Positions 5,249 to 41,079 of a stretch of 64,000 bases of DNA are shown in pieces. Source of the DNA: a virus (taxonomy: Duplodnaviria; Caudoviricetes); the IMG/VR virus record IMGVR_UViG_3300028833_000067, positions 32,001 through 96,000 of that record; one strand, written 5' to 3'. Under the pieces are notes generated by a model. That model made no database searches, was not told where the DNA came from, and was given only the letters and a program-made list of their open reading frames with translations. The translations under genes were made by a program, and so were the position numbers. Numbering within the stretch: position 1 is the stretch's first letter; each line of letters begins with the position of its first letter.

Positions 5249-8200
5249 TTACCTCCTTACGCTATTGTTAGCTTTTGTCTTGGAAGCAATGCGAAGCATT
5301 TCATCCATTACTGTACGAGCTGCCTAGCGTGAATCATAGTCATTAGCAAGCTTATCAATATGAAGATTAACTTCTGCTTTATCAATTTGCATTGTATTAG
5401 AATTATTAGAAATTGAGTCATAAGCATTTGCTGGTAAACCTTGATAAGCCTCGTTGTAGGATTTGAGTAGATTTATTAAGGAATTAGGACGGTTGCTAAG
5501 GATGTTTTCACGAAGGATACGAGTTTGGACGGGGTTGAGGACTGCTTCTGGTTGACCTGTTTCGCCTATTAGAGCATTGGTAGGTTTATCTATTAATCCA
5601 CCAGATCCCATTACCATCATTTTTCTTGTCGTCAATCTACCTGGTTTTGTGGTTGTAGCAATGTCTGTCGGCTTTATAAGAGCTTTACCAAATGTATCTT
5701 CATTACGTTCATAGTTGCAAATTTTGCATCTTGTACCGTTCCAAACATGAGGTTTTTTATCTTTACTTCCTTTACTACCATCAGAAAAAGTAATAATTTT
5801 CCAATGATACTATTCATCCTTTCCATAAGACTTACCGTCCCATTTTCCTGCGCCCTTGCTCTTCTTACTCTTACCGCTACCTTTACCTTTATCGCTATCT
5901 TTACCTTTATCACCGGTCTTTTTACCATCGTCTTTACCAGGATCAATTTTAATATCTCCAGCTACTTTTTTCCTAATTGCGGCGACATCGCCCGGAATTC
6001 CAGCTCCCTCATCTCTGAAAAGAGCCCATTGCTAAGCTTTAAATATTGTCTAATATAAAGCTTCTTCACTAGCAACTGGTGATTTATCCCAATAGCTAGA
6101 ATCATTTTCATGAATATATCTAGCAATTTCCTAAGGACTTCTACTCATAATATCAGTAACTTCAGCCCAAAGTAATCCATGTTTTTTCTAATACTCTAAT
6201 ATTTCTGTCTCTAATTGAATCTAAGCTTCTAATTTCTCAATCTATTTATCACTCGCGGCTTGAATAGCATCAATCTATTCTTGCTGCTTATCGAAGTATA
6301 AGGAACGTTCCTAATCACTAATCTAATCATTTAGACTTGCGATTTCAGCCGCGGAGCCACCAGAACGAACTAATATATCGCGCTTATTCCGCAATCTATC
6401 TAATTCTTGCTATGAATCAGCTAACTAATACATATTTTGTTCTTTCTGTAATACATCCGTAAGTCCCTTAATATACTTCTCATTTGAACTTGAAATTGCT
6501 TCTTTAGTATCAGTTAATGCGTCAATCGCGCGCTGACGAGTATCAACAATCGCATTATAAATGCTTGTTTCAAGCTCCATCTAATTATCGCGCATTTCCT
6601 TAATTAACTCATTCTATTGCTATTCAAGTTCTTGCTACTTCTTATAGCCTTCCTCAACGGAATCATGTAATGACTACATTTCTTCCTTATCGGTATCAAT
6701 CTTCTCCCAGAAAGCCTTGACCATTGAACTGAAATCTTTACCATCAATTTCTTTACCACTATTATCATACTTCATAAATTCCTTATATTTAGGATTTAAA
6801 GCGATAATAGCTTTATATTGTTCTTCATCAGTCATATTAGGCTTTCCAGTATTCGGATCGCGGCTAGCAATCTTAGAAAGTTTCTCCATCGCGCCAGGTT
6901 TATACTTAAGTTGACCATTCTCATCAAAAGTATATAAAGCAGTAAATGGATTATTTCGAGAGTTCATCTCCGCACGACGCTTATTAAAGTATGCTTCCTA
7001 ACTTTCAGTTAAATCTTTCTAAACAGAAAGCTATTCTTGTAATGCCTCTAAGCTGTCCTTCTGGCTATGGAAGTAATCTCTACCATTTGGCGCCCATTCA
7101 GAGCTTATGCGGTTGCGGTAAGCTTCGTAGTAAGCAATATCCTTTTCTAGCTAAGCGATTCGCTGTAACCAGTTATACCACTTTTCTAGGTCTCTTAGGA
7201 ATTGGCCACCGCCGCCTCCACCGCCGCCACCGCCGCCTTTGCCCATTAAGTCCTCAACGCTTAATTGAGCTAAGGAAGCCCATTGTGCGCGTAATTGCTT
7301 TAATGCGGCTAATGCGGCTGCAGCACTTGCCATTGCAGGCCCGCCATGTATACTACCTTTAGCAAATGCTACTGCATTTTGTTCATTAGTAATTGCGTGA
7401 CCCCGACCCTTAGATGTACCCTTTTCAAGTAAGGATTTTGTTTGTAGATGATTAAATACTATTGCATCATCTGCTAGATTAACCATCTCTGGACCGTTTT
7501 GTCCTGCGACAAAGTAACGGCCGTTGGAAACCACAAGCTCGGGGCCGAGTTCACCCATTAAAGTGCCCTTTGCATTAGCAAGGCCAATATTGCCGGTTGC
7601 CTAAGTTCCTTCAGGAGTACTGCCGCTAGGTATAGTCTTTGGCAGCCCACTTGTATCTGCAATTAACTTAACTTTTGCAGTAAATGGACCAACAAGAGCA
7701 TCTAAAATAGGTTGTACACTTGGTGAAGCTAATGTTACTTTTATATCTTTTAATCCACTTTCAATTGTTGTTTTTGCATCCTTAGCAAGTTCAGGCTTAA
7801 CTGTAACCTAAGCTTCATCAGTAATAAATCTAAATCCTGATATTGAACTAACTTTAGTTCCATCTGGTAATGACCAATCAATATCACCTGTAATAGAAAC
7901 ATGCTACTATAATTGACTAACCTCGCTTCGAAGTGTCTAAAATACCTTTTGCGCTGCATTATTTAACGCATTTAAGTGTGTCGTTATAGAGCCCTATGCC
8001 TATCCAAAACGTTTTTCTAATTCAGAAATTGCGCCACTTGCTCTTGCTACCATTGCCTATATAGTTGCTGGCAAACTAGAACTAGAAATGCTTGTTTCAA
8101 TATCCTTTATAGTTGGCGCTGTTTCTACCATCTAAATTTCTTGCTTAATTGGAGGAAGAGTGGTTTCTGAGAGTTCTGAAACTTTCTATTCAGTCTGCTT

Positions 8201-36382: not shown

Positions 36383-36610
36383 AGTGGGGAACCTTCTTTC
36401 ATATAATGTCAAGCGGTGTACCGCTTGCAAGGGTATTCTCTCACTTTGCAAGGGAAAAAACAAGTACAAAAACAGGAAAAAATGACGATTTAATATTTTT
36501 GTAACAATTGTTTAAAAATTCTTAACAATTAAATATCTGTTCAATCGTTTCAATAAAATGTATTATAATGTATTATTATTTGTATTGTCTAAAGCGTACA
36601 AATCTCGGCC

Positions 36611-36725
36611 TGTGGATAACTCGCCTCAGCTTGTGGAAAACTTGTGAATAACTTTTTCCACAACCAAAGTTTTCCACAGCCATGTTTTCCACAAGTTTTC
36701 CACAGGGAAACCGAAGTTATCCACA
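36611..36725. promoter_or_regulatory. Cluster of 8 DnaA-box-like 9-mers (candidate origin or DnaA titration site)
   Basis: TGTGGATAA 36611, TGTGGAAAA 36632, TGTGAATAA 36643, TTTTCCACA 36654/36670/36685/36696, TTATCCACA 36717. AT-rich tract at 36490-36590. Confidence 0.8.
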
Positions 36726-36937
36726 GGTTTTACCAGATATGACAAATGTAACAGATTCGTAACAATTGTAACAATTGCGTCACAAACCCTGGAAGCGTTG
36801 ATTTATAAGGCTTCCAGGGTTTTTTGGATGTATAACATCCAAGTGTTAGCCGTGACTAACTCAGCCGTTTTATGGTATAATCTGGTCAGGAGGTGGGGGA
36901 AATGTTACGAAAGTGTTACAAATGCATTGGAAGGTGG

Positions 36938-37122
36938 GATACCTCAGCAGGCGAGGTACCTCAGCAGATGAGATACCTCAGTAGGCGAGGGCGCGCTCGC
37001 GCCTATACGGATGCGCGCCCTGCCCCGGGTATATATAGGCGCCGGCGAGCTGCAAGCTGGGAGCTGCAAGCTGGGAGCTGCAAGCTGCGAGCTGGGAACT
37101 GCGAGCTGGAAGATGTAAGCTG
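36938..37122 (+). repeat. 3x TACCTCAGYAG followed by 7-bp RAGCTGN tandem repeats
   Basis: Read directly. Confidence 0.8.
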
Positions 37123-37138
37123 GAAAGGAGCTAAAACA

Positions 37139-37324
37139 ATGCTAATAATGGGAACTGGGTTTGTGCTGGGCGGGTTGGTAGCTGGAAGCTTCGCCCCACT
37201 CAAAATGGTCGCTGTGTGCGAGTTAATCGGATGGGCGTTAATGGGTGTGGCCGGACTAAGAGCCGAACAGAAAGAGCGCAAGGCCGCACAAAAATTAGCA
37301 ATGTATCCAACCTATAAATATTGA
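37139..37324 (+). CDS. Small membrane protein, 61 aa
   Basis: AAGGAG RBS, two hydrophobic segments, downstream hairpin. Confidence 0.6.
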   Translation: MLIMGTGFVLGGLVAGSFAPLKMVAVCELIGWALMGVAGLRAEQKERKAAQKLAMYPTYKY

Positions 37325-39807: not shown

Positions 39808-39975
39808 ATGGATAATATTAAAGTTACCTATGAACTTCGGCGGCATGATTCTTCCCGTTTCCATGGGTGGATTGTGTGGGAATGTTCTGATGGTATGGAA
39901 TCAGTGTATTTCCAGTCAACTTCTCTTACAGAAGCCAAAGCAGTCTTTAATGATTTGCACGCCGAAGTTTTATAG
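39808..39975 (+). CDS. Hypothetical, 55 aa, ends in TAG
   Basis: GGAGG RBS; TAG lies in the loop of the terminal hairpin. Confidence 0.7.
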   Translation: MDNIKVTYELRRHDSSRFHGWIVWECSDGMESVYFQSTSLTEAKAVFNDLHAEVL

Positions 39976-40054
39976 ACTTCGACCTTTCTATTTGGATGTA
40001 TAACATCCAAAATCCCCTCTTGTGCTTTTCCTCAAAAGGTGATAATATATACTT

Positions 40055-40350
40055 GTTCCGAGGGGAGCGCGGGCAGAGCCCTGAAGCGGGTGTGACCCAT
40101 GTGAGTCAGTAAGACCACGCGCGATGAACCGGCCGCACGCCGAAAGAGCGAGATGGTGCGGGATACACAGTGGCGAGCTGTGGGGTCAGCTGGAGCTGGC
40201 TTAAATGTCGAGGCAGCACCTGCAGGGGACTGAAACAGGCAGGGATTCATCTCGTGAAGACCTCCCCTTCCCGTTAGCCGTAGGGAAAACGGTGGAAAGC
40301 CGTTGAAATCGGTTAGAGAATCCCGGCGAAAAAAGTACCCGGGATTTTCG
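40055..40350 (+). ncRNA. Structured ncRNA, copy 1 (family not recognised)
   Basis: Own palindrome and promoter, GC-rich, no RBS/ORF, terminal hairpin, covaries with copy 2. Confidence 0.75.
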
Positions 40351-40425
40351 CTTAACTGCCTTTTGGATGTATAACATCCAACTTTACTGCTTGCTTTTTC
40401 CCTTCAAAAGTGATAATATATACTT

Positions 40426-40720
40426 GTTCCAAGGGGAGGGGCGGCGAAGCCGAAGAGGTGCGACCCACGTGAGTCCGTAAGACCGGCCCCCGATGAACCG
40501 ACCGCGCGCCGAAGTCCTACTGCGCGGTATACGGGGTGAGGAACCCCGGGGTCAGCTGGGCTGGCTCAAATGTGCAGGCAACAACAGGGGAGCGTCTGGG
40601 ACCCCGGGGCTGGTAGGATGGACGCAAGGGGTGGTAACCCGCCCGGCGAAGAGCCGGACTCAAGGCCGCAAGTGGGCGGATGAATAGCCAAGAGCGGATA
40701 ACAAGTAATCCGCTCTTTTT
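40426..40720 (+). ncRNA. Structured ncRNA, copy 2 (family not recognised)
   Basis: As copy 1. Terminator GAGCGGAT...ATCCGCTC-TTTTTT. Confidence 0.75.
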
Positions 40721-40839
40721 TGTCGTATACATTTGGATGTATAACATCCAATTTAAAATTTGACAAACCCCATGGGCAAGCGTATAATCATAAGTGAAAA
40801 GAGGGAAGGAAAACCCGTTAAACCAGAAGGAGAACGGAC

Positions 40840-41079
40840 ATGGAAAAGACTCTTAATACTTACCTTGATGTGAGCATCTATATCTCTCATACCAGTGAGT
40901 ATCGCGCCGGCCGTATCTACACCAACAATGAGATTGCAAAGCTGGATCTGCATCTGGATGTCCCCTATGAGCAGGCGAAAAAGGAGCTTGCTCGTCTGAT
41001 GCTTCGCACCGGTAAGATGCCCAAGGTTCATCACGGTTCTACCTCTACCATGTATTCCCTCGCCGCTTTTCTTGATTAA
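40840..41079 (+). CDS. Hypothetical, 79 aa (family A)
   Basis: Cassette context. Confidence 0.75.
   Translation: MEKTLNTYLDVSIYISHTSEYRAGRIYTNNEIAKLDLHLDVPYEQAKKELARLMLRTGKMPKVHHGSTSTMYSLAAFLD

Follow-up and report, generated by a model that had tools for sequence, protein, structure and literature searches.

The stretch of viral DNA considered here, 64,000 nucleotides long and called the window below (bases 32001-96000 of the 176,887-base virus record IMGVR_UViG_3300028833_000067, which is rated 98% complete), contains two adjacent units, 39992-40352 and 40363-40722, in which no credible open reading frame (ORF) was found. Each unit carries a structured RNA, here called RNA A, or copy A (40055-40352), and RNA B, or copy B (40426-40722). 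An original prediction, made from the sequence of the window, had placed a pair of structured RNAs, paralogous, ORF-less and showing compensatory changes, at this locus, and we found both at these positions. Here we report that they have relatives in an RNA family of more than 100 members across which such covariation recurs. That the two units represent a previously uncatalogued RNA family, with the knotted fold described below, we regard as very nearly certain.

Two RNA genes in an array of palindrome-tagged cassettes

On the + strand, from ~36.8 kb to 59 kb of the window, runs an array of short units, each of which opens with the palindrome TTGGATGTATAACATCCAA or a near copy of it, followed by a host-type promoter. 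The 19-bp palindrome TTGGATGTATAACATCCAA has 61 matches in the window against 0.03 expected. Both RNA units are richer in GC than their flanks (0.56-0.66 versus about 0.35-0.47), as had been predicted, and the promoter module of RNA A also heads protein-coding cassettes of the window. Both RNA genes are cargo of the phage's palindrome-tagged early promoter cassettes.

Direct evidence for gain or loss of cassettes at the palindromes comes from a 133-kb relative, L081, which has the same palindrome with one mismatch. There (L081:1-2000) the order of RNA A and RNA B is kept, and three palindrome-bounded protein-coding cassettes lie between them; the RNA genes thus behave as independent cassette cargo. 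The 79-aa gene downstream has no relatives in viral contigs, and hence provides no synteny.

Both promoters have a TGnTAATAT extended -10 box and a 17-nt spacer ending in TG, and promoter B nearly matches promoter A in alignment, as the original prediction had it. Promoter A is absent from a strict consensus promoter scan and was read directly from the sequence; it is presumably active. The likely starts lie near G40055 (RNA A) and G40426 (RNA B), and with these starts both RNAs would begin GUUCC. Copy B ends in a classical terminator with a U run, found by a terminator scan, and copy A in a longer-loop hairpin, seen in a fold of its 3' part, that is followed by UUUU. Each unit is probably transcribed by the host RNA polymerase from its extended -10 promoter and ended at its intrinsic terminator.

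A shared knotted fold

A scan of IMG/VR with the first conserved block gave a third copy, behind an unrelated promoter (L009), and a covariance model (CM), R1, built from three sequences, namely copies A and B and L009, then found L013, L075, L081 (two copies) and L088. From eight copies a 25-nt signature, GGTGYGACCCNYGNGAGTCNGTAAG, was derived, which had at least 119 matching stretches in a scan of metagenome contigs. R1 and nhmmer over all fetched loci returned 138 copies, 119 of them distinct, in viral, metagenome and metagenome-assembled genome (MAG) contigs; the CM search of phage DNA for relatives, proposed with the original prediction, therefore has a family of more than 100 distinct members to show for it. 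Copies A and B score 232 and 191 bits with R1, and 70.5 and 82.2 bits with a second model, R2, of the core.

Most copies match just the first ~105 nt of the window copies, which makes the 5' half the common core, while the 3' halves divide into several subtypes, among them type A with 19 distinct members, type B with 17, and compact ones. With few exceptions the copies contain no ORF and stand behind a TTGACA-17-TATAAT promoter of their own, and a terminator is present in most members.

We aligned 107 cores with MAFFT (A5) and sought covarying columns by mutual information; 44 members of the commonest compact subtype were aligned end to end (A6), with the structure written by hand. On the alignment of 107 cores, register shifts between subtypes left RNAalifold with a poor consensus, and mutual information and hand-built structures were used instead. 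The fold begins with P1a, P1b, a 2-bp hairpin H2 (GC-NRA-GC) and an optional hairpin P2, after which comes a nearly invariant junction strand of ~27 nt, GGUGYGACCCNYGNGAGUCNGUAAGNC in the 107 aligned members. The return strands of P1b and P1a follow, then hairpin H3 (ACCGCNN...NNGCGGU), the strand KAUA...YAAAUGUG, hairpin H4 and the segments i, j, i', PK1' and j', where i-i' crosses j-j' to form a 3' H-type pseudoknot. PK1, the pairing of the H3 loop with a segment 50-90 nt downstream, inside the 3' pseudoknot, ties that loop into the knot. The hairpins P2, P3a/P3b and H4 are peripheral, present or absent by subtype.

In A6, 86.1% of the cells are in standard pairs, against 77.2% in shuffles and 35-47% in slid controls, and 23 of the 42 pairs are changed on both sides (shuffle mean 18.1; slid controls 7-14). 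Doubly changed cells number 177, compared with 64.2±7.1 in shuffles, 0/500 of which reach that count, and 22-41 in slid controls; pairs with double-sided change occur in P1b, H3, H4, i-i' and j-j'. Family-wide, the pair adjoining H2 is GC in 75 sequences and AU in 32, with no mismatch, and one H3 pair is AU in 73 and GC in 30. PK1 is constant within the compact subtype of A6 because that subtype was selected by its PK1 sequence. Across the family PK1 takes at least 12 complementary versions at near-constant offset (CGAGAUG/CAUCUCG, GUCCUG/CAGGAC, UCCUAC/GUAGGA, UCAUAC/GUAUGA, UCAUGC/GCAUGA, GCCACG/CGUGGC, GCCGAAU/AUUCGGC, CGAUCC/GGAUCG and CGACG/CGUCG, plus others). With one representative taken from each of 18 loop classes, 94% have a complement of at least 5 nt in their own tail, against 42% when the same test is applied to the tails of other loop classes. 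All three pseudoknot-type pairings are backed by covariation.

Copies A and B both fit this fold (Table 1). Their minimum free energies have z-scores of -2.09 (copy A) and -2.95 (copy B) against shuffles, and H2 with the signature junction, by which a member is recognised, spans 40073-40115 in copy A and 40444-40483 in copy B. Alignment of the two copies is good for roughly the first 220 nt, beyond which their sequences have diverged. The predicted divergence of the 3' thirds therefore holds for the sequence but not for the architecture, since both copies share the strand order i, j, i', PK1', j' (CCUGC, AGGGGA, GCAGG, CAUCUCG, UCCCCU in copy A; GGGG, GCGUC, CCCC, GUAGGA, GACGC in copy B). In type A, P1b (19 members) is 95% canonical with three pairs changed on both sides, P3a and P3b are 100% canonical with three and five such pairs, and PK1 includes one G-C to U-G double change.

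The conserved blocks pointed out beforehand are all present: the first is the family-wide signature, and the third lies inside the optional two-hairpin insertion P3a/P3b, which is missing from most family members; the block GGGGTCAGCTGG...GCTGGCTYAAATGT is mostly hairpin P3b. The three covarying stems that had been named are likewise kept in homologues, GCGCG/CGCGC versus GGGGC/GCCCC being P1b, CCGCAC/GUGCGG versus CCGCGC/GCGCGG being H3, and CACAG/CUGUG versus CGGGG/CCCCG being P3a. The long-range pseudoknot suggested between GACCC and GGGUC did not hold up. GACCC is invariant in every member and GGGUC lies inside P3b; as most members lack P3b, this pairing is no conserved pseudoknot. Another candidate, a long-range helix GAUGAA/UUCAUC in type A, competes with PK1 and was rejected: changes in L260 keep PK1 (G-C to U-G) and break GAUGAA/UUCAUC, so that PK1 is preferred.

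Table 1. Positions of the elements of the two RNA units in the window
Feature	Position	Strand	Description
Palindrome, operator-like tag of cassette A	39992..40010	+	exact match to TTGGATGTATAACATCCAA
Promoter A (putative)	40020..40048	+	-35 TTGTGC 40020-25, TG 40040-41, -10 TAATAT 40043-48; 17-nt spacer
RNA A	40055..40352	+	knotted core 40055-40268, 3' extension, terminator hairpin about 40319-40347
RNA A P1b	40067-72 with 40116-22, A40117 bulged	+	encloses H2 (40073-79) and junction
RNA A invariant junction	40089..40115	+	family signature
RNA A H3	40133-38 with 40156-61	+	17-nt loop; 99% canonical in type A
RNA A PK1	CGAGAUG 40149-55 with CAUCUCG 40248-54	+	100% canonical in type A
RNA A optional insertion	P3a 40166-70 with 40178-82; P3b 40183-90 with 40195-202	+	37 nt
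RNA A i-i'	CCUGC 40219-23 with GCAGG 40239-43	+	invariant in type A; same topology covaries in compact members
RNA A j-j'	AGGGGA 40224-29 with UCCCCU 40263-68	+	95% canonical, 5/6 pairs doubly changed
Palindrome of cassette B	40363..40381	+	exact match to TTGGATGTATAACATCCAA
Promoter B (putative)	40391..40419	+	-35 TTGCTT 40391-96, TG 40411-12, -10 TAATAT 40414-19
RNA B	40426..40722	+	knotted core 40426-40625, structured 3' extension, terminator 40690-40717 and U run
RNA B invariant junction	40457..40483	+	family signature
RNA B H3	40501-07 with 40522-28	+	96% canonical among 17 type B members
RNA B PK1	GUCCUAC 40514-20 with GUAGGAU 40613-19	+	100% canonical, 2 pairs doubly changed
RNA B optional P3a/P3b	40532-67	+	
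RNA B i-i'	GGGG 40587-90 with CCCC 40602-05	+	type B variants GGAC/GUCC, GGGC/GCCC
RNA B j-j'	GCGUC 40592-96 with GACGC 40621-25	+	100% canonical, 4/5 pairs doubly changed

Novelty, carriers and neighbourhood of the family

The original prediction could assign the units to none of tRNA, tmRNA, RNase P, SRP and the small ribozymes, and this stands; they belong to no catalogued class. In a cmscan run against all 4227 Rfam 15 families, raiA, ROOL, GOLLD, HEARO, RNase P, SRP, 6S, tmRNA, riboswitches and small ribozymes included, there were 0 matches at gathering score across the 64-kb window, and over 39900-40850 at E<=10 the best scores were 14-15 bits against cut-offs of 39-111, which is chance level. 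A compact family member at E<=10 had no credible match to Rfam, and 18 further loci had none at the RNA, their sole match being one tRNA elsewhere. ARAGORN found 0 tRNA or tmRNA genes in the window, and Tandem Repeats Finder found no repeat array over 39950-40800, such as a ToxI-like type III antitoxin would have, with direct repeats of some 30-45 nt. Literature searches returned no description of the family, which may be contained in a 2023 catalogue of ~10,000 candidate viral structured RNAs (PMC10690425).

Two kinds of molecular mimicry were considered and rejected. In type A, GUCGAGGCAGCACCUGCAGGGGACUGAAAC resembles a type I-C CRISPR repeat; the sole Rfam match that would fit an RNA anti-CRISPR is CRISPR-DR10 at E 6.5, which is chance level. 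The stretch concerned, GACUGAAAC, folds as a CUG-AAA-CAG hairpin in type A, gives way to other sequence in L237 and L246 and has no counterpart in type B or the compact members, which leaves no conserved CRISPR mimic by comparison with Rfam and the family homologues. The CCACGAGAGU...GUAA part of the junction, which we took to resemble helix 44 of 16S rRNA, failed a test on a real 16S gene: in a 16S gene from the order of one carrier MAG, the helix 44 site has 17/28 identities and an unrelated site has as many. Mimicry of helix 44 or the sarcin-ricin loop by the junction was rejected, its 16S identity being no higher than background.

The family is almost confined to phage DNA from gut and rumen samples. 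R2 detects two copies, and no more, in the genome to which the window belongs; three other virus records hold one or two each, and two MAGs hold two or three, spread over separate contigs. It finds 0 in 150 other genomes from the same order as one carrier MAG. Absence from these 150 genomes, together with presence in virus records, indicates that the family is phage-carried and not part of host core genomes. When one genome from each of 185,579 prokaryote species was scanned with the signature, only five contigs matched, all from MAGs and labelled Clostridia, Eubacteriales, Acutalibacteraceae, Bacillota or 'Yak_Rumen'. A blastn search with copies A and B and one compact member found no relative among 50,697 GenBank phage records.

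In other phage lineages the promoters and terminators that accompany the family are quite different. When 1263 ORFs within 4 kb of 119 loci were clustered, no gene proved to be a constant partner; the neighbours are small early phage proteins on the same strand (a HAD-like phosphatase, an exonuclease-like protein and unknowns) at variable distances. A different carrier lineage repeatedly, at many loci (for example L009:5000-5030 and 5340-5360, L203 and L273), has GGCCGGCC-centred hairpins and CTAAAGCG / TTAGCAC repeats in terminators and intergenic spacers, which suggests a cassette-boundary element of that lineage's own.

Additional RNA-like elements accompany the family outside the window. 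Upstream of the knotted RNA, at a distance of 100-350 nt, 22 fetched loci have a second conserved element, which is GC-rich, ORF-less and ~170-190 nt long (for example L009:5690-5880 on the - strand, L158:7747-7913, L197:42-202, L228:1828-1993 and L167:3164-3346); it is absent from the window. As the knotted RNA has no recognisable promoter of its own at six of these loci, it may share a transcript with the element. The diverged L013 member is followed directly by another promoter-led, ORF-less, RNA-like unit (L013:3700-3940, - strand), the 5' end of which resembles the family start; it is missing the signature junction and has no homologue among the fetched loci.

The remainder of the window gives the following context. 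Bearing on positions 1-36000 of the - strand, the 64 kb contain just 23 ORFs of at least 150 aa under genetic code 11; among ten larger window proteins Pfam recognised almost none, which was of little help for placing the phage. A cluster of DnaA-box-like 9-mers at 36585-36740, with TTATCCACA and TTTTCCACA variants in both orientations, adjoins an AT-rich tract and GTAACA repeats at the switch in gene orientation; it may represent an origin or else a DnaA sink. The palindrome at 36824 precedes the first cassette, whose leader (36930-37125) is GC-rich (GC 0.59) and holds two short sets of direct repeats, GATACCTCAGCAGGCGAG-like (three) and GCTGCAAGCTGGGA-like (five), and a small hydrophobic ORF starts downstream of them at 37140.

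Possible roles and relation to known systems

Based on these observations, we propose as the best explanation overall, with a probability of roughly 0.6, that the two units belong to a new family of knotted phage RNAs that acts early as a trans-acting binder or decoy. Taken alone, the assignment of a role as binder or decoy of a host component is tentative and less likely than not. The RNA would be made early in infection and act in trans as a folded binder, with the invariant junction as the possible surface or pocket by which it contacts a host protein or some other component of the host, and a decoy role might serve host take-over or counter-defence. The distinct PK1 sequences of co-resident paralogues may allow each to fold without mispairing with the other. 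We rank binding or decoying first because the family is phage-only, has early host-type promoters and is often multi-copy. Its anatomy is that of a compact knot with an invariant unpaired strand and variable helices, with no single-stranded seed and no repeated short motif, which argues against an antisense small RNA or a CsrB-type sponge and for a folded surface or pocket.

Several points weigh against this proposal. Promoter use, RNA ends and abundance are read from sequence, and a pseudoknotted globular fold with an invariant strand suits a ribozyme or a small-molecule aptamer equally. The alignments hold many related sequences, and the shuffle statistics accordingly overstate independence; P1a, with 56-59% canonical pairs, is a weak helix in both type A and type B, and type A shows no variation in i-i'. 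Between certain compact members and the promoter that follows, no terminator is obvious, and six members (L157, L158, L186, L197, L228 and L234) have no recognisable promoter and are preceded by the second conserved ORF-less element, so that not every copy is a separate transcription unit.

The family may instead be a class of functional phage RNA with its own biochemistry, either a ribozyme or an aptamer sequestering a host signalling or immune molecule, that is traded as a promoter-RNA-terminator cassette; this we think possible, if doubtful. The invariant ~27-nt junction would then be an active site or pocket.

Taken singly, each of these two activities is unlikely. As a trans- or self-acting ribozyme, for instance one cutting host RNA or processing itself, the RNA would have its active site in the junction and the AUA...AAAUGUG strand, held by the triple knot. 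Near-invariant unpaired nucleotides, freely varying helices and optional peripheral hairpins form a conservation pattern typical of the glmS, RNase P and HDV-like ribozymes, and the RNA's pseudoknots, nested and crossing, are reminiscent of HDV-like and glmS cores. However, no Rfam ribozyme model scores, even at E<=10, and neither a processing signal nor a conserved candidate for a cleavage site was identified. As a stand-alone aptamer, the RNA would sequester a small molecule, for instance one of the nucleotide second messengers used in host immune or stress signalling, and would be the RNA counterpart of phage sponge proteins. A compact, riboswitch-like fold that has, in the window, neither an expression platform nor a regulated gene downstream is consistent with this, as are strong promoters, at least two copies per genome, presumed early expression and restriction to phages; yet there is no similarity to any known aptamer class in Rfam, the required stoichiometry is demanding, and the 3' domain, which would help form the pocket, is not sequence-conserved between subtypes. 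We know of no precedent for RNA sponges, which also counts against the aptamer.

Less probable still is a self-assembling architectural RNA like ROOL, GOLLD, OLE or raiA, in which PK1 or another pairing between molecules would give homo-oligomers. PK1 links two distant segments and could in principle swap between molecules, the PK1 sequences of co-resident paralogues are orthogonal, and the niche, that of ornate orphan RNAs carried on phages or prophages of bacteria from gut and rumen, is shared with ROOL and GOLLD (10.1101/2024.12.08.627333; PMC5737381). Against this, the knotted RNA is 3-4 times smaller and is related to those families neither in sequence nor by CM.

A cis-acting transcript element, either a leader blocking 5'-3' decay (RNase J) or one modifying RNA polymerase for read-through to the cassettes downstream, seems very improbable. 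It would account for the several compact members that reach the next promoter without a clear terminator, for the six that lack a promoter and lie downstream of another element, and for a fold that begins at the very 5' end, with P1a at the likely start; but in the window terminator hairpins follow both copies and the next unit has its own promoter, neither unit holds an ORF in start context, as a riboswitch or leader would need, and the downstream genes vary among loci. Hidden small protein genes or non-functional GC-rich filler have a negligible chance: while GC-rich sequence leaves frames of 60-76 codons on either strand, those of copies A and B are short, non-homologous to each other, without a PHROG match and broken by 1-nt indels in close homologues (which also have 5- and 9-nt indels inside the core), and the substitutions in helices are compensatory.

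To our knowledge, it is rare to find RNA families that have a complex fold, hundreds of members and strong covariation, and most of the known ones are ribozymes, riboswitches or parts of key ribonucleoproteins. Like glmS, HDV-like, SAM-II/V and preQ1-II/III RNAs, the knotted RNA combines an H-type pseudoknot with pairing of a loop to a distant strand and few invariant unpaired nucleotides; unlike them, it has no model match and no evident regulated gene or cleavage site, and its size and helix order differ. Confinement to phages, early promoters, often several diverged copies per genome and movement between phage lineages as a cassette suggest that the RNA takes part in the struggle of phages with their hosts. 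A signature for searching, two CMs and a testable fold are now available for the family, and if its RNAs do act as decoy, sponge or ribozyme, an RNA-only tool would be added to the mechanisms of phage take-over and counter-defence.

ROOL, GOLLD, raiA and OLE are ornate orphan RNAs of bacteria and prophages, often found on Firmicutes phages or prophages; ROOL first came to light in rumen data, the multimers that these RNAs form have been shown by cryo-EM, and their biochemical function is unknown (PMC5737381; 10.1101/2024.12.08.627333). The knotted RNA is, like these, stand-alone, highly structured and pseudoknotted, with conserved unpaired nucleotides. It differs from them (200-800 nt) in being unrelated in sequence and architecture, and their Rfam models do not score.

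RNA-based counter-defence in phages includes RNA anti-CRISPRs (repeat mimics), pseudo-ToxI and phage tRNAs. These, too, are small phage-encoded RNAs, and they act early as decoys or substitutes; the knotted RNA shares with them a promoter of its own. Each of those systems copies a host RNA (a CRISPR repeat, a ToxI repeat or a tRNA), whereas the knotted family resembles none of these. The promoter-early (PeSL-type) cassettes of T4-like phages are reportedly self-contained early units bounded by a repeated element, with cargo that related phages swap, and the array described here is likewise a series of cassettes with a repeated boundary element. In PeSL cassettes the cargo has so far been small protein genes; here RNA genes are cargo as well, and the boundary element, a 19-bp palindrome, precedes a host-type promoter.

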